From Patescibacteria group bacterium (GTDB lineage Bacteria > Patescibacteriota > Kazan-3B-28): a DNA stretch of 64,000 bases. The position numbers were made by a program, and so were the translations under genes. Below are positions 8,182 through 57,212 of this stretch, piece by piece. The stretch lies in NCBI GenBank assembly GCA_028717565.1, contig JAQUNP010000002.1, positions 90,054 through 154,053 on the forward strand, given 5' to 3'. Under the pieces are notes generated by a model. It did no database searches. It was not told where the DNA came from and saw only the letters and a list, made by a program, of their open reading frames with translations. Position 1 is the first letter of the stretch; each line of letters begins with the position of its first letter.

Positions 8182-8667
8182 ATGAGGTATGTATTTTGGG
8201 CTCTGGGGCTCGTAATACTGATCTTGTTGGCGAATTGGACTTATCAAACTTTTACGTCCAACGATGAAATGGATGCAAATACTGCTCAGGTGGAGGTCTT
8301 TTTCAACGAAAATCAACCCACTGATATTGTGCAAGTGGGAGTGGAAAGAACAGTGCCGGCTACTAGCAACGTGGAAGATTTAGCCGAGGCGGCGATGCGT
8401 GAACTTTTGGGTGGGCCGACGGATAAGGAGGCGGAACAAGGCCTAACTACGGCTATTGCTGACGGTACTCATTTAAACTACGTTAACATAGTGGATGGTG
8501 TGGCCACAGTGGATTTCAATGAGGCCTTTGATTTTCAAATAGGTGGTTCGGCTAGGGTAATGGCCATCAGTCAGCAGGTGCAAAAAACCCTGACGCAGTT
8601 TACGGGTGTGAATGACGTAAGGATTACGATCAACCATGGTGCACGTGAGGCGGTGCTGGAACCGTAA
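8182..8667 (+). CDS. GerMN-domain lipoprotein or secreted protein
   Basis: GAGAGGAGG RBS and an N-terminal TM anchor. GerMN-like blocks LLGGPTDKEAEQGLTTAI and DGVATVDF. Confidence 0.65.
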   Translation: MRYVFWALGLVILILLANWTYQTFTSNDEMDANTAQVEVFFNENQPTDIVQVGVERTVPATSNVEDLAEAAMRELLGGPTDKEAEQGLTTAIADGTHLNYVNIVDGVATVDFNEAFDFQIGGSARVMAISQQVQKTLTQFTGVNDVRITINHGAREAVLEP

Positions 8668-8774
8668 CCAGAGGTATGTCGGAGAAGTCCCAACCTACTT
8701 ATAAGAGAAACAACCCAAGGGGTGCCGTGGGTTGTTAGATGTCGCGAACCAGTAGTGGGTTTTTGGTGGGTAAA

Positions 8775-9038
8775 TCAGGGCTTCTTATCAGATTGAGCGA
8801 TGTTGTTTTGCTCTGCCAATTTTTTGCAGTGCAGCAATCGGGTATAGACGCCACCACCCAGAAAAAACTCGCGCTCAGTCATTTCGGGACCACTAATATG
8901 GTCGATAAGTTCGCGGAGAGAAGCGAAGCCGCACTGGCTTGGCAGGGTTTTGAACCCTTGGAAGCCGTAATCCTGAACCATCAGATCAAGTAGTGGTATA
9001 TCACTTTCCTTAATCTTGGAGCCAATTATCTGGTGCAT
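8775..9038 (-). CDS. Hypothetical protein
   Basis: Minus-strand ORF with GAGGTG shortly upstream of the ATG at 9038. No family recognised. A competing + strand ORF at 8739-8993 looks less protein-like. Confidence 0.4.
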   Translation of the reverse strand: MHQIIGSKIKESDIPLLDLMVQDYGFQGFKTLPSQCGFASLRELIDHISGPEMTEREFFLGGGVYTRLLHCKKLAEQNNIAQSDKKP

Positions 9039-9110
9039 GGTCACCTCACAATGTACGAATGGCTTTATTGTACACTATAAAACTCTAATGGTCGTATCTA
9101 TAATGGATCT

Positions 9111-10481
9111 ATGGCAAAAAAGAGTTTTGCAGGGAAACGGATAGCTGTCATCGGGCTCGGCAAAGAGGGTCTGGATTTGGTTATGTTTTTGCATCGTGAA
9201 GGTGCCCAGGTAATGGTATTGGATAAAAGTACACCCAAGGCCTTGGGGGCTAATTATACGGTGGCTAAAAAGGCTGGTGCCAATTTTAACCTAGGTGCCC
9301 ATTATCTAGCCGATCTAGCAAGGTTTGATATCATCTTTCGTTCGCCTGGAGTGCCTTTGGACACCCCGGCACTAAAGGCGGTGGCAAAAAAGGTGCCGAT
9401 GAGTAGTGCTATCCGATTGTTTATGGAGCGGTGTCCGGCAAAGATGGTGGGGATTACGGGCACCAAGGGCAAATCAACTACTACGGCTTTGGTTTATCAT
9501 TTGTTCAAAGGGCATAAACGGGTGTGGTTGGCAGGTAATATTGGTGTGGCGCCTTTGCAGCTTTTAACCAAGTTAAAGAAGAGTGACATAGTTGTTTTGG
9601 AGCTGTCGAGTTTTCAGCTAGAGGATGTAAGGATGAGTCCGCACGTGGCGGTGCTTTTGAATGTAGTGCCGGAGCATTTGGACCGACATGGGACTTTCGC
9701 CAAATACTTAAAAGCTAAACAAAATATTTTTACACATCAGGGTAAAAGTGATTGGCTGGTAGCTAGTCGTGATTTTGAGGTTACTCGTGAAGCTTTAAAA
9801 AAATCTAGGGCTAAAAAATTTGGCTATTCTACTCGCAAGGTTTTGGATCGGGGGTTGTATTTGGCAAAAGACAAGATTGTGTATCGCGATGTGCGCACGG
9901 GCAAACGGCGAGAGGTAATTGATAGAAAAGAGGTGTCTTTATTGGGCGAACACAACCTGCAAAATATTTTGCCGGCGGTGGCGGTAGCACTGACGCAGCG
10001 AGTGCCGCTAAAGCACATTGTTAAAAAACTAAAAACCTTCAAGTCACTTCCCCACCGGTTAGAATTTGTGCGAGAGAAAAAAGGGGTGTTGTTTGTAAAT
10101 GATTCTTTGGGGACTACGCCAGAAGCGGCTATTGCGGCTACGGAAAGTTTTGCTTATACCAACGTGGCGCTCATAGTTGGCGGGGTATACAAAGGAGGAG
10201 ATATTGATGCTCTAGCGAAGGCGGCTCAAAAACACGGGGTCAGGTTTGTGGCCTTGATTGGCAAGTCGACACCACTTTTCTACAAAAGCTTCAAGAGATA
10301 TGCTCCGGATGTAAAGACGGAGGGCTTCCCACACCTGCGTGCGGCAATCAAGGGGGGCTTTGGGGCTGTGAAAGACCGAGGTGGGGTGGTAATATTGGCG
10401 CCAGCCGCTGCTAGCTTTGATATGTTTAAAAATGCTTATGAACGAGGGGATCAGTTTCGGGACTTGGTGAAGAGGTTATAA
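9111..10481 (+). CDS. murD: UDP-N-acetylmuramoylalanine--D-glutamate ligase
   Basis: Rossmann-like N-terminus (RIAVIGLGKEG). Mur ligase P-loop GITGTKGKSTT. dcw order places it before ftsW. Confidence 0.92.
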   Translation: MAKKSFAGKRIAVIGLGKEGLDLVMFLHREGAQVMVLDKSTPKALGANYTVAKKAGANFNLGAHYLADLARFDIIFRSPGVPLDTPALKAVAKKVPMSSAIRLFMERCPAKMVGITGTKGKSTTTALVYHLFKGHKRVWLAGNIGVAPLQLLTKLKKSDIVVLELSSFQLEDVRMSPHVAVLLNVVPEHLDRHGTFAKYLKAKQNIFTHQGKSDWLVASRDFEVTREALKKSRAKKFGYSTRKVLDRGLYLAKDKIVYRDVRTGKRREVIDRKEVSLLGEHNLQNILPAVAVALTQRVPLKHIVKKLKTFKSLPHRLEFVREKKGVLFVNDSLGTTPEAAIAATESFAYTNVALIVGGVYKGGDIDALAKAAQKHGVRFVALIGKSTPLFYKSFKRYAPDVKTEGFPHLRAAIKGGFGAVKDRGGVVILAPAAASFDMFKNAYERGDQFRDLVKRL

Positions 10482-17053: not shown

Positions 17054-17069
17054 AAACCTTTGACTGGGA

Positions 17070-17097
17070 TTGACTTTTATTGGCTTTCGTGTATGAT
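17070..17097 (+). promoter_or_regulatory. Sigma70-like promoter with a ~110-nt 5' UTR for the RRM protein gene
   Basis: TTGACT-16nt-TATGAT. A second TTGACTGGGA lies 10 nt upstream. Confidence 0.5.
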
Positions 17098-29879: not shown

Positions 29880-31091
29880 ATGTGGGAAACCTTCATTGCC
29901 GCCCCAGCCAAGAAAAAAGCAGGAGCTGGTTATAATGAGCTTGACCGGGAGCTGTTATTTAAATATTGTGAAGAGATCACGGGGGACGGTGATGTTCCCT
30001 TGATAAGGAGGTGTCTTACGGCTAAGGGTAAATTGAGAGTAAACCGTGCTCTAGCACGGCGCGTTTTTGACGCATTACTGGCGGCGCTAGAGCAAAAAGC
30101 ATTCCCTTATAATTTCGCTCAAGTTCCGCATCTGGATGAAAACTTCCCGAAAGGGATGACACTAGGTGGGGTGGAGGAGGCCCGGTTTTTGTTTGTTGTT
30201 TGCCTGTGGATGCGGGGAGGGATAAAAAGCACCACAGCATTTAAGCAGCTAGCGAGGGTATGGGAGGCGAGGGCGAACATTTTTGACCCGAGGTATGTGG
30301 CTGCACGCAAAAATTCGAAGAAGCTGGTGCGGGAGATTTCCGAGCTGCTGCAAGCGTGCGGTTTGAAATACAGGTCGGGCATGGCGTATGCGCCATATGA
30401 ATGGGTGTCCAACCTAACCAAGCTAGAATATTATTGGCACGGAGATCCGCGGCAGCTCTTTTACGGAGAAGGTGCAACCTGGGAAGATGCGTATGCTCGT
30501 ATCATTTCCACATATTCAGGCAACGGTGGCAAATTCGACCCCGATTCACCCAATGGGTTTTTGGGGTTTCGGGAAAAAATGGCCAGTATGCTGGGGTTCT
30601 TCTTGGCCGATCGGGGATTGCTCGATAGCGAGTCCTTTCCCATTCCGGTGGACTTCCACGTGATGCGAGTAATAGTGGAGTGTGGGATTATCGAGCTGCC
30701 GGATAGCTGGACGGGCTATGAATCGGACTGGAGACAGCTAGCTCAGCTGATTCGGGGGTTGACCCAGCAATACTGCGAAAAAGAAGAGCGTGACTGGAGA
30801 CGCTTAGGAGACGCCTTATGGTTGTTGTCGGGGAATGTGTGTAATCTCTACCCAGGCAATACCAGTGTGGTCGGCGAATATAACGCGCGCCAAACCTCGG
30901 TGGACTCTCGGGAGCTTATGTGGACTCCGATGCTGTCGATTAAATACTGGCAAACCTGTGGCCAGTGTCCGATAGAGCAGTTTTGCAAGCATTGTGTTCC
31001 GTCAGCTCTGTATTATCGGCAAGGCCGATTGGACATTAGGGGTAAGCACACTAAACCCCAGGGGCTCTTTTCTGAAATCGACGCCGGATAG
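29880..31091 (+). CDS. HhH-GPD-superfamily DNA glycosylase-like protein with a C-terminal Cys cluster
   Basis: GFREKMASMLGFFLADRGLL...PIPVDFHVMRV resembles the EndoIII/MutY HhH plus VDTHVxRV block. C-terminal CGQCPIEQFCKHC looks like a FeS-cluster loop. GC-rich. Start is uncertain (no clear SD). Confidence 0.5.
   Translation: MWETFIAAPAKKKAGAGYNELDRELLFKYCEEITGDGDVPLIRRCLTAKGKLRVNRALARRVFDALLAALEQKAFPYNFAQVPHLDENFPKGMTLGGVEEARFLFVVCLWMRGGIKSTTAFKQLARVWEARANIFDPRYVAARKNSKKLVREISELLQACGLKYRSGMAYAPYEWVSNLTKLEYYWHGDPRQLFYGEGATWEDAYARIISTYSGNGGKFDPDSPNGFLGFREKMASMLGFFLADRGLLDSESFPIPVDFHVMRVIVECGIIELPDSWTGYESDWRQLAQLIRGLTQQYCEKEERDWRRLGDALWLLSGNVCNLYPGNTSVVGEYNARQTSVDSRELMWTPMLSIKYWQTCGQCPIEQFCKHCVPSALYYRQGRLDIRGKHTKPQGLFSEIDAG
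29897..29910 (+). repeat. 14-nt direct repeat of the tRNA-Gln 3' end (att-like)
   Basis: TGCCGCCCCAGCCA is identical to 29743-29756. It lies inside the first codons of the ORF at 29880. Confidence 0.7.
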
Positions 31092-34957: not shown

Positions 34958-34979
34958 CTGTCTGGGAGCTGATTTGGGG

Positions 34980-35008
34980 TTGACAGGGGGGCTGGTTTCA
35001 GCTAAAAT
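34980..35008 (+). promoter_or_regulatory. Sigma70-like promoter of the 35.0-37.2 kb cassette
   Basis: TTGACA-17nt-TAAAAT. Confidence 0.65.
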
Positions 35009-35073: not shown

Positions 35074-35331
35074 ATGGGTGACGACCTTCAAACATACGTG
35101 TGTGGGTATGTACAGAAGTCAGCAACATCTGGGCAGGTTGCGCATGTGCGGGTCAAGGACCCGACGAGTAAGCACAACGGTCAGGTGATGCAGGTTTCGT
35201 CTACCTGTGATGGCAAGACCCATTGGTTGGACCAGGGTCTGCATGTCCAGTTTCAGATTGGCTATAAGGAAGGCCCACCGCCACGGAAGAAGAAGATTCC
35301 ATACGCGGTGAAGGTCCGTCTAGCCGATTAG
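35074..35331 (+). CDS. Hypothetical 85-aa protein (possibly OB/cold-shock-like)
   Basis: GAGGAGG RBS. The beta-rich pattern ending LDQGLHVQFQIGYKEG...YAVKVRL loosely resembles a CSD C-terminus. Confidence 0.45.
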   Translation: MGDDLQTYVCGYVQKSATSGQVAHVRVKDPTSKHNGQVMQVSSTCDGKTHWLDQGLHVQFQIGYKEGPPPRKKKIPYAVKVRLAD

Positions 35332-35415
35332 AACGGGCATATTAAAAAACATAAACTCCTAGGACCTAGGAGTTTGCGTCGCGTCATTCGTGTCATTTCG
35401 TCCAAGGAGACGATT

Positions 35416-37191
35416 ATGCATCTCACATTTATTATGATGGCTGTTCTCCTGGTTGTTTCGGCGATCGGGGGAGGTCTGATTTGGTGGATGGTTGATCTGT
35501 CCACCGCAATCCAAGCCATTGTCTGGCTCTGGATCGTTGAGGCGGCTCTCTACATTGGTCTGATTGTCTCGCTTTGGGGCGGTAAGCGCCGAGGTGAGGT
35601 CGATATCAGCCGGGGCTGGATGTACACGGTTCTTCGCTGGGGATACCAGTGGCAACACTGGGATGGCAGCGGAGGTGTCAATTTTTGGACTGGCCGGTGG
35701 CAGCTGTACGAATACGATCCAGACGGTTGGAAACGGGACCTGGGAAGCCAGATGAAATATCGTAACATCTGTTTCTTATGCACTTGTCTTTGTGTCTGTC
35801 TTCATTTCCTACCAGTGCGACTGGTCATCCGTTTGGTCGGCTGGCTGGTGGTAACTCCACTGTGGTGGCTGCTTTGGGCGCCAATACGGCTGCTGGTACT
35901 GATCGTTTATCAACTGATCTACCAGCTCATCCTAACCCCAATCGGCCATGGCTTAGTACGCTGGTTCCCGGGTACGCGGAGATTGCTCGAGCGACCAGTA
36001 TTTGGCTGGGAACCGCTGCCGTGGTGGGTGTTGTTGGTGTGTTTGGGGCTTGGGTGCCTCTACATTGCACCGACGACTCGCTACGCCTTGGCGATTACTC
36101 TGGTCTGGATGATGAGAATATCACTGGGCCTGGGGGTAGTGGCGGCGGTTGGTTATGCCATCGGGTCGGCGTTGAACAGTGAGAAGTTCTGGGCGTTCTG
36201 GTCTGATCTCGGTAAGGCAGTGCGTGACCCTTGGGATTCACAGCTGGTTAAGCTGGGTTTCTGGGTGGTCGTTTCCTTGACCGTTCTGCTGGTCCTAAGC
36301 CCCTTGGCATTTCACTACTGGGCTACGGTCAAAGTGCTGCTCTACATCCTGGACGTTATCCTGAACGTCGGCTTCATGCTAATAGCGGTCTGGACTTGTG
36401 TCATTATCACTAGCTGGCAGAGTCGCAAGATGATCGTTCTTTCCTCTGCTGTCTTTTGGGGCATGACTGCGTTGATGGCCGGCCCGGTTTTTAACTGGTT
36501 GTATACGCAGGTATGCGATTTACTGACTGTTCATATTCCGCTGATAACTGCCGGGGTAGCTGGTACACTTTGGCTATTCTGGCTGATTATACTCGGCCCC
36601 ATCAAGAGTATCGAGACGGCGCTGGAAAGAAAGCGTCTGCTCCAAGAAAGAGCTGCCGCGGCACAACAGCAGACATGGGGAGAATTCAAACGGCGACGCC
36701 CGGTGGTTGAAGGCAAGAAGTACGACAAGGACTTGGAGTATATGAAGGACTTGTTATATATGGCGCTGGGAGTTCTATTCTGCGGCATTCTCTTGGGGGG
36801 GATAGTGACGATCATTTATACCCTGGTCATCCACATCACCTGGAGAGTGGCCATGTGGGTAGGAGCCATTGTAGCCGGAGAGGTTGTGCTGCTGGTGCTA
36901 ATGGTGCGCTGGGCGCCGGCGATGGAACGGTTCTTCGATTGGCTGTACCGACTCGGTGTCTGGGTGGCCATGGGTCCTATTGGAAAGATCGTGGTCTTCC
37001 TAGTTCGCATGGTATGGTGGTGTGTGCTGAGCTGGGCGTTCCGTATCCTGTGGGCTGTCTTGCGAGGCACTGGGTCTTTCCTGCGCAATTGCTGGTATTG
37101 GCTCTGGGACGCTGGAGCTGCCTTGGCGGAAGCTGCTCGGGATGCCAAGGTCGGGCTTTGCCCCCTGGTCAATGTCAAGGTCGAACGATAA
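35416..37191 (+). CDS. Large Trp-rich polytopic membrane protein, unknown function
   Basis: AAGGAG RBS. About 14 predicted TM helices, many W/R-rich loops, and one coiled-coil-like soluble insert (ALERKRLLQERAAAAQQQ). Confidence 0.62.
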   Translation: MHLTFIMMAVLLVVSAIGGGLIWWMVDLSTAIQAIVWLWIVEAALYIGLIVSLWGGKRRGEVDISRGWMYTVLRWGYQWQHWDGSGGVNFWTGRWQLYEYDPDGWKRDLGSQMKYRNICFLCTCLCVCLHFLPVRLVIRLVGWLVVTPLWWLLWAPIRLLVLIVYQLIYQLILTPIGHGLVRWFPGTRRLLERPVFGWEPLPWWVLLVCLGLGCLYIAPTTRYALAITLVWMMRISLGLGVVAAVGYAIGSALNSEKFWAFWSDLGKAVRDPWDSQLVKLGFWVVVSLTVLLVLSPLAFHYWATVKVLLYILDVILNVGFMLIAVWTCVIITSWQSRKMIVLSSAVFWGMTALMAGPVFNWLYTQVCDLLTVHIPLITAGVAGTLWLFWLIILGPIKSIETALERKRLLQERAAAAQQQTWGEFKRRRPVVEGKKYDKDLEYMKDLLYMALGVLFCGILLGGIVTIIYTLVIHITWRVAMWVGAIVAGEVVLLVLMVRWAPAMERFFDWLYRLGVWVAMGPIGKIVVFLVRMVWWCVLSWAFRILWAVLRGTGSFLRNCWYWLWDAGAALAEAARDAKVGLCPLVNVKVER

Positions 37192-37225
37192 ATATGTACA
37201 TCCGATGGTATGGCAAAACCATCAC

Positions 37226-37254
37226 AACGCCGCCCCCAAGGGGCGGCGTTTTTG
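37226..37254 (+). terminator. GC-stem terminator, copy 2 of a duplicated pair
   Basis: AACGCCGCCCC-CAA-GGGGCGGCGTTTTTG. Confidence 0.85.
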
Positions 37255-37369
37255 ATATAAAAGTCCCCTCTCTGGTGGTTGAAAACCCCCCGGTTTTCAG
37301 GTATATTTAAGCAGTATAGAACCCCCCGCAGTGCCAAAACATAGCTTGGTACGCGGCAAGAAAAATCAC

Positions 37370-38425
37370 ATGGAATACGAAGAGGAAAATATTAGCCAGG
37401 AGGAGCTCGAACAGGCCGAGGATGATCGGGAAACAGAAGACGAAGAAGCTGCTCCCAAAAGGGCTGATAGAAAAGAAATAAAAGAACCAGAGGAAGAACC
37501 CATGGTAAGAAGACCTAAAAGTGCAGGACTGTTGCTGACCATCTTTGGGGCGGTTTTAATTGTTTTGATTGGCGGGCTAGCGTCTTATTATTACTACACT
37601 TTTCAGCAAATGGGTCGCAGCAATGAGCGGGTGTTGACGGACGTCTGGGATGAAACAGTGCTGGCGACGATTAATTTAGTAAATAAGTTTGATCAAATCA
37701 GCGAGTTTACTCAGCTGGGCGAGAGCGACTCGGACAATTTTGAAAGTTATGTGAGTGATGCGAATCGAGCTGTGCGGGATGGTGTTTTTGATGTACGTAG
37801 CCAAACTGGACTCGATGTTTCGGCGAGCACGTTTGCAAGCAAACTCAACAGTTTCTTAGATGACTATAGCAACATGCTTGGTGAGCTAAAACGCATAGCT
37901 TCGCGGGCTGATGAGATTGACGATCCCAACGAACTCAAGGAACTAATTGGCTATGGTGATGACATGGAAAGCTCGTACGATGCGCTAATCTTGGCCAGCA
38001 ACAGCTTCATCCAGGCGAATCTCCCGCGGGATATTTTTGATATGCCGGACGATATTTCGACCATGCTTGAAGATAAATTAGAAAGTGATGGTACACTAGA
38101 AGCCCAAGAGAAAGAAAACCGCCAGGCGGCCGAGCAGGTGGCAACTCAATTCGTGCAGGCCTGGAAAGATCGTGATGCTGATGGCATGTCGGCACTGATG
38201 ACGAGTGGTGCCAGAGGGGAATTTAATCGGGGTGTTTTGGAGGATTCTTCAGACATTACAAGTTTTCGGATAATGAGTACGAAGATGGATGCCGATGCGG
38301 CGATCGAGATTTCTGGACGGTTGGAGAAAGAAACACCGGATGGTCAAACCGCCGATGAAGATTGGAAATTTACTTTGATAAAAACCGGGGACAACTGGCT
38401 GATAGATACTTGGAAAAAGGTATAA
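37370..38425 (+). CDS. Membrane-anchored protein with an acidic N-terminus and an NTF2/SnoaL-like C-terminus
   Basis: TM helix LLLTIFGAVLIVLIGGLASYYYY. C-terminal QFVQAWKDRDADGMSALM pattern. Start is uncertain (GTG 37331 or ATG 37370). Confidence 0.55.
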   Translation: MEYEEENISQEELEQAEDDRETEDEEAAPKRADRKEIKEPEEEPMVRRPKSAGLLLTIFGAVLIVLIGGLASYYYYTFQQMGRSNERVLTDVWDETVLATINLVNKFDQISEFTQLGESDSDNFESYVSDANRAVRDGVFDVRSQTGLDVSASTFASKLNSFLDDYSNMLGELKRIASRADEIDDPNELKELIGYGDDMESSYDALILASNSFIQANLPRDIFDMPDDISTMLEDKLESDGTLEAQEKENRQAAEQVATQFVQAWKDRDADGMSALMTSGARGEFNRGVLEDSSDITSFRIMSTKMDADAAIEISGRLEKETPDGQTADEDWKFTLIKTGDNWLIDTWKKV

Positions 38426-41991: not shown

Positions 41992-42018
41992 TCAATGGCT
42001 CAAGATTTGAGCCATTGA
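41992..42018. terminator. Hairpin-family element (TCAATGGCTCA-AGATT-TGAGCCATTGA)
   Basis: Perfect 11-bp stem. Forms the left flank of the zinc-ribbon cassette. Confidence 0.7.
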
Positions 42019-42070
42019 GTTTTTGGCCAAGGGGGAGAGAAAAGCAGGGTATACTTACTCAATTTTTAAC

Positions 42071-42094
42071 TAATGACGCTATATAGCGTCATTA
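42071..42094. repeat. 24-bp perfect palindrome TAATGACGCTATATAGCGTCATTA
   Basis: Shares the 14-bp core ACGCTATATAGCGT with 48955-48970. Confidence 0.8.
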
Positions 42095-42200
42095 ATCTGG
42101 ATATGGTTTGGCTCTGTTGTGGCAGTGGGAGTTTGGGATAGACCATAGGCCCCGGGATGTCGGGGCCTATTATGGTGGTGCGATGTGGCCGCGGTGGATA

Positions 42201-42497
42201 TCAGCTGGTCTGCCGTATTTTCAGAACGTTTTCTACATAGTCGCCGTAGGTCCAGTCGATATCGGTTGTGCCACATCTTGGGCAGAGCAGATCGTGGTAG
42301 GGGGACCTGGCCGTATAGAATGCTTCCGGTGGGGCGGTGAAGCCGCAGCCGTTGCATCGTGGCGGGTGTTCTACATCTGCGCTTTGGCACTTGGGGCATC
42401 GGGCAGATTGCTGAAGTGGAGTGCAAAGGGGATTGGTGTAGAAGGTGTCGAGATCGCCCGTATGTCCACAAGCTTTACAAGTTGCTGTGTGTGCCAC
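42201..42497 (-). CDS. Triple zinc-ribbon protein
   Basis: AAGGAGG lies 5 nt before the GTG at 42497. Three CxxC...CxxC pairs (CKACGH..CPKC, CNGCGF, CPRCG). GC-rich. Confidence 0.6.
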   Translation of the reverse strand: MAHTATCKACGHTGDLDTFYTNPLCTPLQQSARCPKCQSADVEHPPRCNGCGFTAPPEAFYTARSPYHDLLCPRCGTTDIDWTYGDYVENVLKIRQTS

Positions 42498-42578
42498 TTT
42501 TTCCTCCTTTAACAAACGGAGGTCTCCAAGACCCCCATTGTTGGAATGCCTCCAGAGTACACGTGGTAGCTATTTTTT

Positions 42579-42606
42579 TCAACGGCTCAAGTTTTGAGCC
42601 GTTGGA
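42579..42606. terminator. Hairpin-family element (TCAACGGCTCA-AGTTT-TGAGCCGTTGGA)
   Basis: Same family as 41992 and 55274. Forms the right flank of the zinc-ribbon cassette. Confidence 0.7.
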
Positions 42607-42615
42607 TTTTTGGGT

Positions 42616-42661
42616 AAAAAAGAACCGCACCGGCTGGGTTGGAACCAGCGCATGGTGCGGT
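42616..42661 (-). terminator. 46-nt structured terminator, copy 1
   Basis: The minus strand reads ACCGCACC-ATGCGCTGGTTCCAACCCAGCC-GGTGCGGT-TCTTTTTT. It matches 49011-49056 at 45 of 46 nt. Confidence 0.8.
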
Positions 42662-42687
42662 GTCTTTAATTAGGGAGCGGTTTTGGG

Positions 42688-44172
42688 CTAGAGCTGCAGC
42701 TCGCCTTTGGCTACAAGCTGCCTTAAGCGGTTGAAGGCGAAGTCGTAAGTCCAGGAGCGGTCGAAGGTATTGTAAGGGGACCTTCGCCCACAGAGTGTCA
42801 GGAGCTGCTCGGTTGTGAACTCCAGCTGCTCCATTGTCGACATCAGGACGGTCCGAAGCCCTGTGTTGTCGTTGCTGATGAGCTGGGCTGCAGTCATACA
42901 TTCCTCAGGGGTTGCGGCCAGCTCCACCAGCCGCTTTCTGGAATGCTGGTGAATGCCGGGGTCTTTCAGGCCGGAGGCGTTGAGCTTATAGACCTGGAGC
43001 CACTGCTCAAACCGGCGGGCATAGCCCTTGAGCTTGGTCAGCCCCTCAAGCGAGGGATAGACCTTACAGACCTTGAGGGTCTGGGCGAAGCCGCTGGCTA
43101 CCGACAAGACACGTTCCCCCCGGAGCTTGTGTTTCTCACAGTCCTCTTGGCCGAGGCCGAGCAGCCCGTATTTATTGCACTGCTCCGCTACTAGCGACTC
43201 CTCAACGGTTGAGGCGCACTCGAAGAGCTGCGCATGGGCGTGTTTGGTTACAAACCCATACGCGTGACGAGCGGCGGCGGTTGCGTGAACTTTCAGCCAG
43301 TTGGAGAAGCTGGCTCCGGCATATTCGTCGAGTGTCAGCAGGAGCAGATCGGCATGTGGCCCTCGGTCTCTGGGGCAATCATCCGCAGAACAGGTTCGGC
43401 AGATCTCCAGGCAGACGTCGAGTGAGGTGAGACCGTGTTTCAGTCGAGCCAGCAGGATGAGCCCTTGAGGGGTATCGCACGAATAGATAGAATAGATACT
43501 CTGCCCGAGTAGCTGATAACACTGGACGGGCGTCTCGGCTAATGCCACCAAGAGGGCCTCTAGGCGTATTCGGGTTTCTGTCAGCAGGGTAGGAAGTTTT
43601 TCTTTTTCTCCTTCCTGTGCTTGCTCCCATTCATGCCAAACGTAGTCGCAGATGATCTCACATGCGGCAAGGGTGCTGTCGAAGTCGGTTGCGGACGCTT
43701 CGATTTTGTGAATCAATGCCCCGAGAGTGGACCCTGGGATTTGCCCATATCCATGTCTGATAAGGCGAACCACCTGCTTGAGGTCGTCCAGAGTTTGTGC
43801 TTTTTCCACCAAAGTGAGGAAGGTGATAGCGCCTCGCTCGTGGAGCGAGGCGTAGTCGGAAAACGTCTCAGCAGCTGCGAGAGCTTGTTGCGTGATAAGC
43901 CCCCAGAGGGCGTAGCTCTCCGTCTTGTACTTGCCCAACAGCCCAAGCCATTCTTGGGTTGTCAACTCGAGCGCACGTAGCGCGGTGGTTACTCGATCCT
44001 TGGCGTCTTCTTCGCTGGGATCGAGCAGGTCGTGGAGGCGAACCAGCCACTCGGCTGGGTAACGCTGTCTCTTTAGATTGAGCTTCCCTCCTTTTAGGAG
44101 GAGAAGCAAGGACAAACCCGGCCCAAGAAGGGTCGAGAGCATCTCAGCCAAACGCACGGTGGTTCTGGCCAT
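42688..44172 (-). CDS. Hypothetical 494-aa all-helical protein
   Basis: AAGGAG RBS 7 nt before the ATG. Long amphipathic helices with scattered Cys. No NTPase or nuclease motif seen. Confidence 0.62.
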   Translation of the reverse strand: MARTTVRLAEMLSTLLGPGLSLLLLLKGGKLNLKRQRYPAEWLVRLHDLLDPSEEDAKDRVTTALRALELTTQEWLGLLGKYKTESYALWGLITQQALAAAETFSDYASLHERGAITFLTLVEKAQTLDDLKQVVRLIRHGYGQIPGSTLGALIHKIEASATDFDSTLAACEIICDYVWHEWEQAQEGEKEKLPTLLTETRIRLEALLVALAETPVQCYQLLGQSIYSIYSCDTPQGLILLARLKHGLTSLDVCLEICRTCSADDCPRDRGPHADLLLLTLDEYAGASFSNWLKVHATAAARHAYGFVTKHAHAQLFECASTVEESLVAEQCNKYGLLGLGQEDCEKHKLRGERVLSVASGFAQTLKVCKVYPSLEGLTKLKGYARRFEQWLQVYKLNASGLKDPGIHQHSRKRLVELAATPEECMTAAQLISNDNTGLRTVLMSTMEQLEFTTEQLLTLCGRRSPYNTFDRSWTYDFAFNRLRQLVAKGELQL

Positions 44173-44267
44173 CGGTCGACTCCTTTTTGTAAGGGGCGAA
44201 ACCGCCCCCTACGGTTTTATTAGTATGGTGTCATACTACACAACGTTGCTGGCTAAATCAAGTTTTC

Positions 44268-44296
44268 TTGACTGGGAACGGGTTTTTGCGTATAAA
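44268..44296 (+). promoter_or_regulatory. Conserved promoter module copy 1 (+ half)
   Basis: TTGACT-GGGAACGGGTTTTTGCG-TATAAA. The back-to-back minus-strand promoter reads TTGATT (rc of 44256-44261)-17nt-TAGTAT. Confidence 0.65.
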
Positions 44297-44330
44297 ATAA
44301 GAGGTAATTATAAGTGCTGGGGGTAACGAG

Positions 44331-44630
44331 ATGTGTCGTTGTCCTTTTTATGGATTTGCGGTCATGGTCCCTGAGATAGGGGTTATGCTGCACTCGGGTG
44401 GCAATCAGTGTGCCATTATCACGGGTTCGTATAGCCCCTGTCAGATGGAGGTGGCCGGCGAAATGCCGAACTGGGACGAATGTCCGTTTCAGCGGCAGAG
44501 AGGCCCGGAGCTTTTGGCCAGGGTTAAAGAATTTCGAGTACACCCTGGTGACTCCCATCCCAATGTCCAATGTTCAGAGGACGGCATGTCCTTTGAAGAA
44601 TGGTTCGAGGCGGTGATGGAGGAGGCCTAG
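44331..44630 (+). CDS. Hypothetical 99-aa Cys-rich protein
   Basis: MCRCPFYGF...GGNQCAI...SPCQME...DECPF. Lies downstream of promoter module copy 1. Confidence 0.5.
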   Translation: MCRCPFYGFAVMVPEIGVMLHSGGNQCAIITGSYSPCQMEVAGEMPNWDECPFQRQRGPELLARVKEFRVHPGDSHPNVQCSEDGMSFEEWFEAVMEEA

Positions 44631-46280: not shown

Positions 46281-46432
46281 TTGACTGGCACTCGGGCACG
46301 GATTCTGTTTTCCTATAAAACTCTTGAGCGTTTGCAGCAGTTGTCGATATCGTTTTTTGATAAAACCCCACCGGGCTGGATACGCGAGAGGATCTTTGGC
46401 GGCATCGGAGAGGTCTTTGGGAAAAACTGACT
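46281..46432 (+). pseudogene. Relic fragment of an MsbA-like ABC transporter gene (paralog of 55425-57212)
   Basis: About 150 nt align by eye to 55706-55857 at roughly 85% identity. The frame is intact for 51 codons (LTGTRARILFSYKTLERLQQLSISFFDKTPPGWIRERIFGGIGEVFGKN*). It has no start and is truncated at both ends. Confidence 0.8.
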
Positions 46433-48886: not shown

Positions 48887-48954
48887 CTTATTTGTTGGAG
48901 CTGAGGCAATTCTATGCCCATTTTTATATCACAATAGAATATCCCGTCACTATG

Positions 48955-48970
48955 TACGCTATATAGCGTA
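48955..48970. repeat. 16-bp perfect palindrome TACGCTATATAGCGTA
   Basis: Shares the core ACGCTATATAGCGT with 42071-42094. Confidence 0.8.
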
Positions 48971-49010
48971 AGTACTATGGTGTTGTTTGATGATCGGGCA
49001 GATTTTGAAT

Positions 49011-49056
49011 AAAAAAGAACCGCACCGGCTGGGTTGGAACCAGTGCATGGTGCGGT
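49011..49056 (-). terminator. 46-nt structured terminator, copy 2
   Basis: Matches 42616-42661 at 45 of 46 nt. Confidence 0.8.
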
Positions 49057-49087: not shown

Positions 49088-49780
49088 CTAGCTGTTGCCC
49101 TCGGATGCGGGAGTTGTGACGGGCGTCTCGGTTTCGGCCGGGGTGTCGTCGACGCCTGGGCCGACGAACCCCATCCCCGCTGGGAAGTTGACTGGGTCGG
49201 CGGATTCTTCGCTCTTCGTCGAGGTCGTGCCGTCGAGGGGCATACTTCCGGACTGGGGAATTTCCAGGTCCAGCATGTATGCAACATGTATGCCCAGCAC
49301 ACTCCCGCCACAAGCGACAGCTGTGGGGCGGACGATGTGCGGGTAGAAGAGCTCTTCGCCGGAGATCCGGCAGATGAGCTCCTCGAGTTGTTCGATAACT
49401 GCCAAGGTGCAGACCGAACATCCTCGAATGTGCTCAACGACGGCTTGCCGGTAGTCCACAGCTGGGTTGTCGTCTGCGTGGGGGTGCGCAGCCAACAGGC
49501 ACTTCACCGCTTGCTTGGCCAGCTTCTTGGGGCTGGGGTGGCGCGGTGGTGGTGACTGCAGACAGGTCGCAAGGCGTGTCATGCTACTGAGGTTGACGTG
49601 TCCGTTCAGTAGCGACAGGGCCCACCGTTGTAAGGCAAGCCACGCAATTCTTGGGTCGGGCTCCTGAGCTAGGGGCCGAACTGTGACAGACCGCCAGACC
49701 TCGATGCCCAGCATCTCGGCGGCGGTGACCAGCAGGATCAGTGGCAATTGCTGCCACATACTATACTTTTTCAGTTGCAT
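49088..49780 (-). CDS. Hypothetical protein with an HxxxCxxC (zf-HC2/ZAS-like) motif
   Basis: GGGAGA RBS. EHIRGCSVC (H117, C121, C124; nt 49409-49432). Acidic, Pro/Thr-rich C-terminus. Confidence 0.55.
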   Translation of the reverse strand: MQLKKYSMWQQLPLILLVTAAEMLGIEVWRSVTVRPLAQEPDPRIAWLALQRWALSLLNGHVNLSSMTRLATCLQSPPPRHPSPKKLAKQAVKCLLAAHPHADDNPAVDYRQAVVEHIRGCSVCTLAVIEQLEELICRISGEELFYPHIVRPTAVACGGSVLGIHVAYMLDLEIPQSGSMPLDGTTSTKSEESADPVNFPAGMGFVGPGVDDTPAETETPVTTPASEGNS

Positions 49781-49850
49781 CGGTTTCTCCCGGACACTAC
49801 TTGGGTTGACGATAACGTATCAATAGGTTTTTTGGCTGTCAAGGGTTTCC

Positions 49851-49879
49851 TTGACTGGGAGCGGTTTTTTGTTTATTTT
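49851..49879 (+). promoter_or_regulatory. Conserved promoter module copy 2 (+ half)
   Basis: TTGACT-GGGAGCGGTTTTTTGTT-TATTTT. The back-to-back minus-strand -35 is TTGACA (rc of 49837-49842). Confidence 0.6.
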
Positions 49880-49907: not shown

Positions 49908-50300
49908 ATGATGGGCGACGAAGGAACAGGTGCACCTCTTATGTTATGGGCAAACATGAGCGAGCCCGAGGTTATGTCAGCTCCGCCAAGAGCGCGGCCG
50001 GTGATGATTGGGGTGGCTACGGTGCTGGTGTTGCCGGAGGTGCAGGAGAGTGCCCCCCTGGGCTTTCGAAAGTTTTTCCAGGAGTACTTCTTGCCGAGCT
50101 GGCTTGGTCAACAGGCCTATGTTTGGGCAAGAGTGGGCGATGCAGCTCTGGCCAAGTTTGGGCCCGGCCGTGCGCCGGCACATCCGGAAGCCGTGGCACA
50201 GTACGGGGAGGATGGCGAGGAACGCAATGTGATTCAGTGGCTGGTGGATTTGTACCGGCGGGATCCTTCTCGCGTGACTATCCTGGGATGGTTTTCATAA
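49908..50300 (+). CDS. Hypothetical 130-aa protein
   Basis: GGGAGAGAG RBS. Downstream of promoter module copy 2. GC-rich. Confidence 0.45.
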   Translation: MMGDEGTGAPLMLWANMSEPEVMSAPPRARPVMIGVATVLVLPEVQESAPLGFRKFFQEYFLPSWLGQQAYVWARVGDAALAKFGPGRAPAHPEAVAQYGEDGEERNVIQWLVDLYRRDPSRVTILGWFS

Positions 50301-51745: not shown

Positions 51746-52837
51746 TTAGGCCGAGGCGGATACGAGAGCGATGTCGTGCTCGACCATTCGTCGGATCATT
51801 TCTTCGAATGAGGTCTGGCGCGGATTCCAGTCGAGCTCCTGAATGGCTCTGGTTGGGTCGCAGCAGAGATAGGGTACTTCCTTGGGCCGGAAGAACCGGG
51901 GATTGATACGGACGCGTACCGCACCGTCAACCCTCAATACGGTGTTCTCGGTACAGCGGCCTGTTGCGTCGTCGCCCTCCCAGACCATCTTGGCGGTGGG
52001 ATACGCCACGCGGAAGGCGGTTTGGACAAGTTCGCGGACCGAGCGGTGTTCGCCGGTACCAATGACATAATCACGGAGCTCGCCCGTCTTTCTGGCACGT
52101 TCCACCATGGCGTGCATGGCCCAAACATAGTCCGGGGCATAGCCCCAGTCGCGTACTGCATCCACATTGCCCAGTTCGATGCATTCCTGTAATCCAGCCA
52201 GGATCATGGCAACAGCTCTGGTGATTTTGCGAGTAACGAACTGAACTCCTCGGATTTCCGACTCATGATTGAAGAGGATGCCACAGACGACTTTGGCCCG
52301 AAAGTGCGGATCGGCGCGGAACATCCGCATGGCGCAGTAGGCGTCATACTTGGACTTGCCATAGACACCTGCGGGTGTGAAGGGCGTGTCCTCGTTTTGC
52401 ACCGGATACTGGCTGAGGTCGGCTTTGCCGAAGAGCTCGGAGGTCAGCGCCTGATACATGTAGCAGGCGGGGCAGACGTTGAGCATGGCTTGCAGCAGAT
52501 TGACGGCTCCGTAATGGTTGGTGGCCTGGACCTCTTCTGGCATCTGCTCCGCGAACTGAACATGAGTGAAGGCAGCCAGATTGAAAAGCATCTGCGGTTT
52601 GTACTTCTCGAGGATATGATGCAGGCTGGTGGGAGACAGGAGGTTGCCCAGTTCCAATACGAACTGGCCTTGAGCCATATAATCACGGAGCTCGAGAAGT
52701 CGAAGACGCCCTTCGGGGTAGTAATCGCTGGTACAGCGAACTAGCCCAACGACAAAGTAGCCCAGCTTCACCAGCAGACGGGTCAGGTAAGCCCCGTCCT
52801 GGCCAGTGACTCCGGTGACGAACGCTCTTTTTTGCAA
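51746..52837 (-). CDS. gmd: GDP-mannose 4,6-dehydratase
   Basis: FVTGVTGQDGAYL Rossmann motif. SDR-extended blocks (ELFGK, YGKSKY, GILFNHES). Start set at the TTG at 52837, 7 nt after GGAGG. GC-rich. Confidence 0.88.
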   Translation of the reverse strand: MQKRAFVTGVTGQDGAYLTRLLVKLGYFVVGLVRCTSDYYPEGRLRLLELRDYMAQGQFVLELGNLLSPTSLHHILEKYKPQMLFNLAAFTHVQFAEQMPEEVQATNHYGAVNLLQAMLNVCPACYMYQALTSELFGKADLSQYPVQNEDTPFTPAGVYGKSKYDAYCAMRMFRADPHFRAKVVCGILFNHESEIRGVQFVTRKITRAVAMILAGLQECIELGNVDAVRDWGYAPDYVWAMHAMVERARKTGELRDYVIGTGEHRSVRELVQTAFRVAYPTAKMVWEGDDATGRCTENTVLRVDGAVRVRINPRFFRPKEVPYLCCDPTRAIQELDWNPRQTSFEEMIRRMVEHDIALVSASA

Positions 52838-52910
52838 GGGAACACCTCCCCCTTGGTTTGACAATACTGGCCTTAGCTTACCATAGGCAAGCTAAATGGC
52901 AACTGAAATA

Positions 52911-52939
52911 TTGACTGGGAGCGGATTTTGCGGTAGGGT
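52911..52939 (+). promoter_or_regulatory. Conserved promoter module copy 3 (+ half)
   Basis: TTGACT-GGGAGCGGATTTTGCGG-TAGGGT. The candidate back-to-back -35 for gmd is TTGCCA (rc of 52897-52902). Confidence 0.55.
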
Positions 52940-52968: not shown

Positions 52969-53631
52969 ATGACTCCCCAACCGTTTAGAATCCCTCAAAG
53001 GATTGCGGATATCAAAGGGTTTGAGGACCCTGATATCTTCATGATTCTGGGGGACATACAGCGTCCCCTGCTGCGCCAGCTTGAGGCGGACATCATCAAA
53101 GCTCCACCGGAAAGACACGGTCACGGCATTCTGCTGCTAATCGAGTCCCCGGGCGGGGACACGCAAACGGCTGGTGTGGTGACGAGTGCTATAAGTCACT
53201 TTATCAACCGGCCGGTAGCCGTACTGGCATTGGGGGCATGCCATAGTGCTGCCTTCAATATCTTCATGGCGGTGCCACCTGAGCATCGATTTGCGGTCCC
53301 CACTGCAACTTTCATGGCGCACCATGGTAGCTACAACATTCTCGACTTGGGGGGAGTGGTGGATGTTGAGCAGGGCACAGTAGGCGGGTTGACCGAAGAT
53401 GAGATGGCACTCAAGGTCCGTCTCTGTCATCGGGAGGCGCTTTACTGGAAACGGTGGCAACTGGCAGTATTGGGGGCGCGGATAGAGGCCGCGTTGCCCG
53501 AAGGTTGCTCGGTGGGGACCTTCCTGAAACTAGATGTCATTATCAATGCCCAGCAAGCATTGGAGATGGGCATCGTCAGGGACGTCATTCCTCCGAATGA
53601 CGACCTGCTTAAATCAGCTCCGGCTCAGTAG
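52969..53631 (+). CDS. ClpP/crotonase-fold serine protease-like protein
   Basis: GAGGAGG RBS. LLLIESPGGDTQTAG, GACHSAAFNIF (Ser), FMAHH (His) and LKLDVIINAQQALEMGIV align by eye to the ClpP catalytic triad regions. Confidence 0.6.
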   Translation: MTPQPFRIPQRIADIKGFEDPDIFMILGDIQRPLLRQLEADIIKAPPERHGHGILLLIESPGGDTQTAGVVTSAISHFINRPVAVLALGACHSAAFNIFMAVPPEHRFAVPTATFMAHHGSYNILDLGGVVDVEQGTVGGLTEDEMALKVRLCHREALYWKRWQLAVLGARIEAALPEGCSVGTFLKLDVIINAQQALEMGIVRDVIPPNDDLLKSAPAQ

Positions 53632-55273: not shown

Positions 55274-55302
55274 ATCAACGGCTCAAGTTTTGAGCCGTTG
55301 AT
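55274..55302. terminator. Hairpin-family terminator, canonical copy (ATCAACGGCTCA-AGTTT-TGAGCCGTTGAT)
   Basis: Perfect 12-bp stem with A-run and T-run flanks. Confidence 0.8.
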
Positions 55303-55424: not shown

Positions 55425-57212
55425 ATGAAAGAAATTAAGCGAATTTGGTTTGAGTCCAAGCCACTTCATCCTGCTTTGTGGGGGATGTTGGGCTTGTCGG
55501 TTTTGGTGGCGCTATTAGATTTGGTAGCCCCCTGGTTTTATCGCGAGTTAGTGAACTTTTTAACTACTGGCCAAGCCAGTCCTTTTTTTGCCAGATTCTT
55601 GCCGACCGAGAATGGAGTGCTGTTTTTGCTGTGGTGGGTAGTTATTTATTTTGGCATTGATTTAATCACTATCACAGCGGGACAGGCCAAGTTTTTTGTG
55701 ATGTCTTTGACTGGTACCCGAGCGCAGATTCTGTTTTCGTATAAAACTCTTGAGCGGTTGCAGCAGTTATCGATATCGTTTTTTGACAAAACTCCGCCGG
55801 GCTGGATACGCGAGAGGGTTTATGGCGGTATCAGAGAGATTTTTGGGATTTTACAGTCCTTGATAGTCGATGTTCTGCCACTGGTTATTAACCTGGTGGT
55901 AGCGGGAGTGGTGTTATTTGTGTTTAACAAGATTTTGGCTTCAGTGTTTATTGCGGTGGCGCCAATGTATGTGGGGCTGTCGATTTGGCGGGCCAAAATC
56001 ATGAGGGCGTGGCAAAAAAAGATTCGGACCAAGGCCGAACAGGAGGGTAAAACATTTTTTGAAAATATCAGTTACTATCAATTGATTCGTGAATTCGCGC
56101 GCGAGGATTTTGAGCTGAAACGACTGGGGACTGTGCAGAGTCAGATTATGAGGTTGCGGCTGAGACAAGAGATGTTCATGCGCTGGAGTGGTTTGGCCAG
56201 AGATTTTTTGCAAATTGTAATTTACGCTTGGGTATACGGCTTTGGAGGGTATTTGGTGTTAACTCAAAAGCTTTTGGTGGGAGATTTGGTATTGTTTATT
56301 GCTTATCTCGGTAGAGCTTTAGGCCCACTGGGGCGGGTGATGCAGATTTATGACAGTATTCAAGTCGGCCTGGTAGCTGTGGGCAGATTATTTATGGTTT
56401 GGGACAAGCGGGATAAGGTTACAGATGTGCCAGATGCCAAATCCTTGGCAGTGAGAGAGGGGAGAATTGAGTTCAAGCATGTAGGATTTGTATATAAGGG
56501 AGGTAGGAGATACAAAGGTGAAAAGACGATTTTCAAAGATTTCAATTTGCATATTAAGCCAAAGGAAATCGTGGCTGTAGTGGGGCCTTCGGGTGTGGGC
56601 AAATCGACTTTAGTTAAGCTGCTGCTACGTTTTTATGACGTAGACAAAGGACGGATATTAGTGGATGGTCAAGATATCAAAAGTGTAACGCAGCAGTCAC
56701 TCAGGCGGCAGGTCTCGGCAGTGATGCAAGATGTGATTACGTTTAATCACACTGTCCAATATAATTTACGCTATGGCAATCCCCGGGCAACGGATCAGGA
56801 GGTGGCGAGAGCTAGCCAAGTGGCGAACTTGTATAACTTCGTTATGTCTCTGCGTAGTAAATTCAAAACCCGGATTGGTGAACGAGGGGTCCGGCTGTCG
56901 GGTGGCGAAAAACAACGTTTAGGTATTGCTCGGGCGCTTTTGAAAGATGCTCCGATATTAATTTTGGACGAGGCAACGTCAGCACTGGATAGTGAAAATG
57001 AAAGGATGGTTCAGGATGCGATGTGGGAATTGATCAAGGGCCGGACGGCAATTATCATTGCGCATCGGCTGTCTACTGTGAAAAAGGCCGACAGGATTTT
57101 GGTGCTGGAGGGGGGTAAGATTATAGAGCAGGGTACGCATCAGGCATTGATGAAGCGAAGTGGGTACTATCGCCGCCTGTTCAAGATGCAAGGAGAGATG
57201 CTCTCAGATTAG
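55425..57212 (+). CDS. ABC transporter, fused permease/ATPase (MsbA-like exporter)
   Basis: Six TM helices plus an NBD with Walker A GPSGVGKST, signature LSGGEKQR and Walker B ILILDEATSALD. Confidence 0.92.
   Translation: MKEIKRIWFESKPLHPALWGMLGLSVLVALLDLVAPWFYRELVNFLTTGQASPFFARFLPTENGVLFLLWWVVIYFGIDLITITAGQAKFFVMSLTGTRAQILFSYKTLERLQQLSISFFDKTPPGWIRERVYGGIREIFGILQSLIVDVLPLVINLVVAGVVLFVFNKILASVFIAVAPMYVGLSIWRAKIMRAWQKKIRTKAEQEGKTFFENISYYQLIREFAREDFELKRLGTVQSQIMRLRLRQEMFMRWSGLARDFLQIVIYAWVYGFGGYLVLTQKLLVGDLVLFIAYLGRALGPLGRVMQIYDSIQVGLVAVGRLFMVWDKRDKVTDVPDAKSLAVREGRIEFKHVGFVYKGGRRYKGEKTIFKDFNLHIKPKEIVAVVGPSGVGKSTLVKLLLRFYDVDKGRILVDGQDIKSVTQQSLRRQVSAVMQDVITFNHTVQYNLRYGNPRATDQEVARASQVANLYNFVMSLRSKFKTRIGERGVRLSGGEKQRLGIARALLKDAPILILDEATSALDSENERMVQDAMWELIKGRTAIIIAHRLSTVKKADRILVLEGGKIIEQGTHQALMKRSGYYRRLFKMQGEMLSD

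Follow-up and report, generated by a model that had tools for sequence, protein, structure and literature searches.

Genomic context of the three sites

The 64,000-nucleotide stretch analysed here, referred to as the window (contig JAQUNP010000002.1, positions 90,054 to 154,053, from a Patescibacteria group bacterium), carries three predicted plus-strand promoters, designated sites A, B and C, whose spacers between the -35 and -10 hexamers contain a short G/C-rich box. The window belongs to the core chromosome and encodes the dcw cluster (ftsI, mraY, murD, ftsW, murC, ftsQ), dnaX, dnaB, cysS, gyrA, proS, S1 and IF2. Two of its proteins were labelled by NCBI as 'MAG: Patescibacteria group bacterium' (MAG, metagenome-assembled genome). 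The window proteins showed 67-77% identity to those of OY968788.1, a complete 560-kb MAG (L044 among the related loci collected here, which are numbered with the prefix L), 54-66% identity to those of a Patescibacteria MAG (L022) and 52% identity to those of a 'Saccharibacteria'-labelled MAG (L051). The GC skew was positive throughout the window (0.05-0.31 per kb), and nearly all genes were located on the plus strand; the few minus-strand genes are GC-rich orphans that adjoin the box promoters.

Sites A-C are located within a 13-kb stretch of orphan genes (42-55.3 kb) between the gyrA operon and an ABC-transporter gene, and each lies between a minus-strand and a plus-strand gene. An initial annotation had described the six flanking genes as GC-rich and unrelated to one another. 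In agreement, no pairwise similarity was detected among the six proteins, and the GC content of their genes was 0.54-0.61 versus 0.43-0.49 for most neighbours. The three genes downstream of the sites are ORFans or near-ORFans. Since no homologues of the ClpP-like, 494-aa and 230-aa proteins were detected beyond the proteins themselves, save one Kazan-group protein, orthologue footprinting was done on other members of the promoter family. No helix-turn-helix protein was detected adjoining the window sites.

Three promoters with a shared spacer box

Judged from their sequence elements, sites A, B and C are predicted sigma-70/sigma-A-type promoters with a -35 hexamer TTGACT, which matches TTGACA at five of six positions, a spacer of exactly 17 nt and a -10 hexamer of the form TAnnn(T/A), the final T being absent at site A (Table 1). 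The -10 hexamers end 29-35 nt 5' of the ATG codons of the open reading frames (ORFs) starting at 44331, 49908 and 52969, and purine-rich ribosome-binding sites are present. The three intergenic strings that the initial annotation had aligned by their TTGACT, conserved 17-nt spacer and -10 box were confirmed in the sequence. In particular, the 19-mer TTGACTGGGARCGGnTTTT was found exactly three times in the window, at 44268, 49851 and 52911, where about zero copies are expected, and allowing up to three mismatches gave five matches against 0.08 expected. The 14-mer TTGACTGGGARCGG likewise had three exact matches; with up to two mismatches it had seven (1.0 expected), a count reached in 0 of 100 dinucleotide-preserving shuffles.

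The initial annotation had also proposed comparing the spacer with those of random sigma-70 promoters of this genome, and the spacer proved to be better conserved: sites A-C share 12-13 of 17 spacer positions, versus 4.4 +/- 2.0 (maximum 9) for nine other predicted promoters of the window. A profile hidden Markov model (HMM) trained solely on instances outside the window was then run on the window and retrieved site C with an E-value of 3.1e-8, site A with 5.8e-8 and site B with 1.5e-6, while its next-best matches had E >= 0.6. The similarity among the three sites is confined to about 32 nt and has an abrupt edge. The box is absent from the predicted housekeeping promoters of the window, and a properly placed extended -10 TG is absent from all three copies.

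Table 1. Box promoters, related copies and associated features. Positions refer to the window unless a locus is named. DGR, diversity-generating retroelement; TR, template repeat; RT, reverse transcriptase.
Feature	Position	Strand	Elements and remarks
Site A, box promoter	44268..44296	+	-35 TTGACT 44268-44273; spacer GGGAACGGGTTTTTGCG; -10 TATAAA 44291-44296
Site A, box	44274-44281	+	GGGAACGG; T-tract 44283-44287
Site A, predicted target	44331-44630	+	99-aa Cys-rich ORF
Site B, box promoter	49851..49879	+	-35 TTGACT 49851-49856; spacer GGGAGCGGTTTTTTGTT; -10 TATTTT 49874-49879
Site B, box	49857-49864	+	GGGAGCGG; T-tract 49866-49870
Site B, predicted targets	49908-50300	+	130-aa ORF, then Gmad2, 104-aa and TspO genes
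Site C, box promoter	52911..52939	+	-35 TTGACT 52911-52916; spacer GGGAGCGGATTTTGCGG; -10 TAGGGT 52934-52939
Site C, box	52917-52924	+	GGGAGCGG; T-tract 52926-52929
Site C, predicted targets	52969-53631	+	ClpP-like ORF, then 115-aa and 384-aa DUF8173 genes
Partner promoter A	44233..44261	-	-35 TTGATT 44261-44256; 17-nt spacer; -10 TAGTAT 44238-44233; consensus match only
Partner promoter B	49814..49842	-	-35 TTGACA 49842-49837; 17-nt spacer; -10 TACGTT 49819-49814; consensus match only
Partner promoter C	52875..52902	-	-35 TTGCCA 52902-52897; 16-nt spacer; -10 TAAGCT 52880-52875; consensus match only
Degenerate family member	29941..29969	+	TTGACC GGGAGCTGTTATTTAAA TATTGT; HMM match at 29938, E 0.61, marginal
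Upstream-register variant	34962..35008	+	CTGGGAGCTG 34962-34971; 8 nt; -35 TTGACA 34980-34985; -10 TAAAAT 35003-35008
Decayed or rearranged copy	17060..17078	+	TTGACTGGGATTGACTTTT; second TTGACT and TATGAT 16 nt on; HMM match at 17054, E 0.64
Orphan copy, probably a relic	42673..42684	+	GGGAGCGGTTTT, no -35; 8 nt past the stop of the 494-aa gene; HMM E 2.3
Complete DGR cassette behind box promoter	L005 1641-4363		target, TR, bAvd, RT
Complete DGR cassette behind box promoter	L063 4609-5842		target, TR, bAvd, RT
Complete DGR cassette behind box promoter	L077 11858-13128		target, TR, bAvd, RT

A promoter family in related genomes

The pattern TTGACTGGGARCGGNTTTT was scanned in a genome collection with one genome per species, and 50 loci were retrieved. 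About 35 matches are expected by chance (our own arithmetic, with equal base frequencies, 596 Gb and both strands), and about 35 of the 50 were found inside coding sequence of unrelated phyla, without a -10. Fifteen matches fell in 12 MAGs of the Candidate Phyla Radiation (CPR), labelled Patescibacteria, Saccharibacteria, Kazan or 'bacterium', and all 15 were promoter-like; three of them are dispersed in OY968788.1. A metagenome scan gave approximately 26 promoter-like matches among 55, and a scan of viral contigs gave none. A motif confined to three sites of one genome, an outcome that the initial annotation had considered, does not describe these results. The motif recurs in related CPR genomes and in metagenomes, and the scan of related genomes that had been suggested revealed that the same 19-mer marks a promoter class there.

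Upon pooling of 95 distinct 19-mer instances, only positions outside the search pattern were evaluated. TAnnnT was found at exactly 17 nt in 32 of the 95, versus 1.5 expected, and other offsets gave counts of 0-2. All 32 of these instances occur in loci that are labelled CPR or share genes with the CPR set. Among them, an extended -10 TG (-15/-14) is present in 27 and a C at -36 in 24, with an A-tract at -41 to -39. In architecture, the predicted family follows the canonical strong promoter, to which a block at -29 to -22 is added, and by the distribution of its sequence the box promoter is a putative class specific to a clade of Patescibacteria. The instances were gathered with the exact 19-mer pattern, and the related genomes were covered as 8-kb pieces.

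The genomes that carry the motif are diverged from one another, as their trigger factor and YebC proteins are only 47-60% identical. Four orthologous YkuD promoters, whose YkuD proteins are down to 41% identical, share as the sole conserved intergenic stretch 36 nt from C-36 through the -10, a footprint that is partly biased because all four were found via the exact 19-mer. Less biased than this exact-pattern set are ten further copies with one to three mismatches, which were found in 317 kb of CPR DNA versus none in shuffles. Most of the ten have a recognisable -10 at about 17 nt, and their variation spares GGGA, GG and the T-run. These patterns of conservation indicate that the box is under selection.

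Genes downstream of the family promoters

The proteins encoded downstream of the family promoters are mostly without Pfam domains, yet they form recurrent families. About one third of the downstream genes are DGR variable-protein (target) genes, which are followed by a bAvd gene and a reverse transcriptase (bAvd and RVT_1 domains in L005). A second copy of the target gene's 3' end lies 460-475 nt further downstream, and the resulting pairs of template repeat (TR) and variable repeat are 121-138 nt long and 85-86% identical. Their mismatches fall at TR adenines in 18 of 18 cases in L005, 15 of 17 in L063 and 18 of 21 in L077. Different target-protein families occupy one syntenic slot in these three cassettes. 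We also observed a conserved 5' leader, GGGTGTAAGGTGGACCCTGTGATTTTyAGGGAAATACCC, after the box promoter in L005 (~1670-1720) and L085 (~3100-3150), with similar sequences in L004 and L044. This leader is kept even where the encoded proteins differ in family, has no Rfam match and may be an RNA element. As for the window itself, no DGR was found by tblastn matches to RT, Avd or target proteins.

Other cargo includes an immunoglobulin-domain L,D-transpeptidase gene adjoining recA in four genomes, small ORFs after tig-clpP and many orphans; in L044, a Mur ligase gene lies behind a degenerate copy. No rRNA, tRNA or ribosomal-protein gene is driven by any of the instances, nor does an Rfam family follow them; across the window and 36 related loci, only tRNAs matched Rfam at gathering score. 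One motif, conserved across species, lies before unrelated genes, as would be expected of the sites of a transcription-factor regulon.

Two registers of the 10-mer

A position-blind scan for CTGGGARCGG with at most one mismatch was carried out in the 317 kb of CPR DNA. As a result, 46 copies were found fused to TTGA, which is the spacer register (-31 to -22), and seven were located exactly 7-8 nt upstream of TTGAC, where 0.07 would be expected. The 30 copies found elsewhere are at chance level (about 35 expected, own arithmetic). Three of the seven upstream-register copies, at window 34962 and in L035 and L049, belong to promoters that have TTGACA as their -35 and a spacer without the box. A distance of 21-22 bp, or about two helical turns, separates the two registers, which lie on the same face of the helix. 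A direct-repeat copy upstream was found in only about 8 of 40 members, mostly of one DGR-promoter subfamily, and was therefore rejected as a general feature of the family. The promoter geometry, the membership of the family, the selection on the box and the two fixed registers are shown by this analysis.

Predicted opposite-strand partner promoters

The initial annotation had presented each site as a bidirectional module of about 55-60 bp. The second -35 hexamer that it placed on the opposite strand, 6-8 bp away, is present at each site (TTGATT, TTGACA and TTGCCA), and each is followed by TAnnnT at 16-17 nt; the opposing -35 hexamers are separated by 6, 8 and 8 nt at sites A, B and C. Partner promoter A, whose spacer is without the box, faces the 494-aa orphan gene (42688-44172, minus strand), partner promoter B faces the gene of the 230-aa HxxxCxxC orphan (49088-49780, minus strand), and partner promoter C faces gmd (~51746-52839, minus strand), which has a likely TTG start at 52839-52837. 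Across the family, however, a partner promoter is present in just 7 of 39 members and a divergent ORF in 6 of 42. Bidirectionality is not a constant trait of the repeated unit: the conserved unit is a one-directional block of about 30-36 nt, and the back-to-back pairing is a recurrent sub-architecture that is local in the window. In three of the four cases outside the window (L024, L049 and L073), the partner spacer also has a GGGAG-type element, whereas the window partners are without it.

The 230-aa HxxxCxxC protein is homologous to a Kazan-group protein (L049 1666-2466, minus strand), with a pairwise E-value of 4e-6 over 153 residues that include HxxxCxxC. In L049, too, the homologous gene diverges from a box promoter, and its own promoter has a GGGAG-type spacer. 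Because this homologue also diverges from a box promoter, the arrangement appears to be old. An anti-sigma identity of the HxxxCxxC protein (zinc-containing anti-sigma type) was rejected, as it had no match to zf-HC2 or any other Pfam family even at E <= 1. We observed a GC-rich hairpin GGGGCG-AAAC-CGCCCC (44186-44206) directly ahead of the ribosome-binding site in the 5' leader of the 494-aa gene; the adjoining palindrome TAGTATGgtgtCATACTA contains the minus-strand -10.

Variant copies and reused non-coding parts in the window

Four further copies in the window depart from the family consensus (Table 1). The degenerate member at 29941 shares 12 of 17 spacer positions with site B and lies 3' of tRNA-Gln and 5' of a 403-aa orphan. 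The upstream-register variant at 34962 has a G-rich spacer, GGGGGGCTGGTTTCAGC, an HMM match at 34960 with E 6.5 and, as predicted targets, the ORFs at 35074-38425. The copy at 17060 is located between the dcw cluster and dnaX, and the relative L022 has an exact box promoter at that chromosomal position.

The 42-55.3-kb stretch contains several other repeated sequences. A 54-nt bidirectional terminator, 94% identical between its copies at 42608-42661 and 49003-49056, lies directly after the 494-aa and 230-aa minus-strand genes, and these two cassettes therefore share a terminator besides the promoter; its hairpin reads TGCRCTGGTTCCAACCCAGCCGGTGCG plus a T-run on the minus strand. A palindromic 26-nt hairpin, TCAACGGCTCAAGTTTTGAGCCGTTG, is identical at 42579-42604 and 55275-55300 and has an 88% copy at 41992-42017, so that the three copies bracket the orphan-gene island. 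The palindrome (TAATG)ACGCTATATAGCGT(CATTA) occurs at 42069-42100 and 48949-48980, at the far end of both minus-strand cassettes. Additionally, a 142-nt intergenic sequence at 46281-46422 is 87% identical to 55707-55848, which corresponds to about codons 115-161 of the ABC-transporter gene. Because its mismatches are mostly transitions and not adenine-specific, this repeat was rejected as a DGR repeat and is a gene fragment left by rearrangement. The recurrence of these reused non-coding parts (terminator, hairpin, palindrome and ABC-transporter fragment) supports a reading of the region as an accessory island undergoing rearrangement.

The box followed by its T-run was also considered as an intrinsic terminator and rejected: GGGAGCGG has no complementary 5' arm, and the lone weak call of the terminator scan (49845-49862) is the -35 and box itself. 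At 42201-42515, the minus strand encodes a 104-aa protein with multiple CxxC motifs (Zn-ribbon-like) behind a strong ribosome-binding site; this is probably the real gene, and the longer plus-strand ORF at 42108-42512 is probably no gene.

Interpretation of the box

We consider it somewhat probable (roughly 55%) that the 10-mer CTGGGAGCGG is the site of a clade-conserved DNA-binding factor held in register with RNA polymerase. The class is defined by this asymmetric 10-mer, which overlaps the last two bases of the -35 hexamer with its own first two and is followed by N-TTTT. The factor would be positioned either within the spacer (-31 to -22) or further upstream, at about -54 to -44, and would group unrelated accessory genes into one regulon. 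The proposed regulon would include the DGR variable-protein genes, the L,D-transpeptidase gene and the Cys-rich, 130-aa and ClpP-like orphans of the window. The fixed register would favour a factor that touches RNA polymerase, as an activator or co-factor, and repression would be just as compatible with a site that shares 2 bp with a near-consensus -35. We infer that the box is read by a protein distinct from the holoenzyme and that the genes are co-regulated. The shared regulator-binding site that the initial annotation had suggested is strengthened by the occurrence of the box before unrelated genes, in many genomes and in two fixed registers.

Several observations weigh against this interpretation. 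No cognate candidate factor was identified, and coverage of the related genomes as 8-kb pieces limits what is seen of the size and content of the regulon. The box lacks the dyad symmetry of most bacterial operators. The exact 19-mer search means that the invariance within the 19-mer and part of the footprint reflect the selection of instances. The upstream-register copies number just seven, four of them from one related DGR-promoter subfamily, and an invariant attachment to the -35 is equally expected of an element read by the holoenzyme. A bolder form of the proposal, in which CTGGGAGCGG would be the site of a master regulator or a dedicated sigma-associated factor that coordinates DGR, cell-wall-remodelling and orphan accessory genes across the clade, is tentative and in our view rather doubtful.

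A serious rival, which we nevertheless regard as unlikely, is that the transcription machinery itself reads the box. In that case the box would be an extended -35/spacer determinant recognised by the sigma-70-family factor of the clade, by a paralogous group-1/2-like sigma or through a beta'-zipper-type contact, and it would serve to select some promoters or make them stronger, akin to UP elements, Z-elements and spacer T-tracts. Consistent with this, all 46 spacer-type copies show a rigid attachment of the box to the -35, the box stays with the -35 where the -10 is shifted by one base (L049 6205), and its sequence is asymmetric, a trait shared by all core promoter elements. At -20 to -17, the T-tract coincides in part with the position of the Z-element (-22 to -18), which is read through the beta' zipper (PMC3173786), and spacer T-tracts next to the -35 tune or set the selectivity of extracytoplasmic function (ECF) sigma factors (PMC5758882). 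The statement of the initial annotation that RNA polymerase does not read the spacer was thus too strong, given these two precedents and the extended -10 TG in 27 of 32 members. Furthermore, L068 has a box-like promoter on each side of a group-1/2-like sigma gene (8611-9633, minus strand). However, spacer contact by the holoenzyme cannot explain the 10-mer 7-8 nt upstream of -35 hexamers whose spacers are without the box, and for this reason an independent factor is favoured; the housekeeping promoters are also without the box, and a second sigma gene was not seen in the window.

The L068 sigma gene encodes a 340-aa protein of the sigma-70 family with RQRARQ instead of RERIRQ in region 4.2. 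It lies among three box promoters, of which those at 10156 and 8570 are box-like and that at 7367 is exact, and is a lead for the reader of the box.

Shared descent alone, which we judge to be improbable, would make the box part of a portable promoter that moves with accessory cassettes (DGRs and orphans) within the clade, its copies being young or homogenised and unread. The cargo is indeed accessory (DGR cassettes and ORFans), and the GC-rich island around the window sites also shares the 94% identical 54-nt terminator, the thrice-present hairpin, the palindrome and the ABC-transporter gene fragment. These features lend some support to the common mobile gene pool that the initial annotation had offered as its second explanation. 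In contrast, the sharp block edges and the clade depth speak against it: similarity ends abruptly at all three window sites and at the end of the 36-nt block in the orthologous YkuD promoters, and the copies span genomes with diverged trigger factor and YebC. Drift in the degenerate copies, moreover, has left GGGA, GG and the T-run intact, terminal repeats and target duplications are absent, and the viral contigs gave no match. A mobile repeat (miniature inverted-repeat transposable element (MITE), insertion-sequence end or recombination site) was rejected on the absence of terminal inverted repeats and target duplication and on the shortness of the similarity (32 nt in the window, 36 nt in orthologues), and a phage or mobile origin on the viral-contig scan and the missing terminal inverted repeats. 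That three ordinary sigma-70 promoters resemble each other by chance has nothing in its favour beyond the commonness of TTGAC and T-rich spacers and is excluded by the shuffles, by the number of shared spacer positions and by E-values of 1e-6 to 1e-8 from a model built on other genomes.

Significance

Most CPR bacteria are uncultured, with genomes of 0.5-1 Mb and few recognisable regulators, and to our knowledge next to nothing is known of how transcription is regulated in Patescibacteria/CPR. The sharply defined 30-nt promoter class provides a computable marker of a putative co-regulated set (DGR targets, L,D-transpeptidase and orphans), and the box provides a bait sequence for the factor that reads it. 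It is probably also a strong or switchable promoter for the emerging Saccharibacteria-like genetic systems, and it can be used in annotation to place gene starts and transcription-unit boundaries in CPR MAGs. If the proposal of a master regulator were true, this would be the first regulon defined in CPR, as far as we found, and a handle on when hypervariable proteins, presumably for host interaction, are expressed in episymbionts.

Comparison with known systems

The searched literature, which covered few subscription journals, contained no relevant account of this motif or of CPR/Saccharibacteria promoter motifs. By eye and against consensus sequences, ECF-type (GGAAC/GAAAC-N16-17-CGT), SigB-type (GTTTaa-N12-15-GGGtat) and sigma-54 (GG-N10-GC) promoters were rejected, since their spacings and key bases do not fit, and none of the cre, LexA, CtsR, HAIR/HspR, MraZ (TGGGN repeats), ComK-box and DnaA-box sites fits, by the same kind of comparison.

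We compared the box promoters with systems that place a regulator site close to the core promoter. MerR-family promoters are similar in having a fixed regulator site between the -35 and -10, which permits co-occupancy with RNA polymerase. MerR operators, however, are dyad-symmetric and lie in over-long spacers of 19-20 bp, whereas the box is asymmetric and its spacer has the optimal 17 nt, so that it is not a MerR-type operator. The MarA/SoxS/Rob boxes are similar in being asymmetric sites in one orientation at few fixed distances from the -35 (here two). The Mar boxes are located upstream of or across the -35 and are not known from the spacer downstream of it; the likeness is a functional analogy only, and no AraC-family protein was identified here.

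The Z-element and the T-tract of ECF promoters are loose and A/T-rich, whereas the box is an 8-nt, G/C-rich and nearly invariant sequence that also occurs upstream of the -35. Correia-type MITEs resemble the family as short promoter-bearing sequences dispersed before unrelated genes. In contrast to them, the box family is devoid of terminal inverted repeats and target-site duplications, its similarity ends after about 32-36 nt, and its conservation extends across genomes whose core proteins share only about 50% identity.

A further comparison is with Gram-positive-type sigma-A promoters, a class characterised by a UP-like A-tract and an extended -10 (TRTG / -16 region). The box promoters are alike in their TTGAC(T/A), 17-nt spacer, TGnTAnnnT (27 of 32 members) and A-tract upstream of the -35. 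We know of no described sigma-A promoter class with an invariant GGGAGCGG at -29 to -22, and text searches for one were fruitless. The underlying core promoter is of the ordinary sigma-A type, to which the GGGAGCGG-N-TTTT box in the spacer is added.

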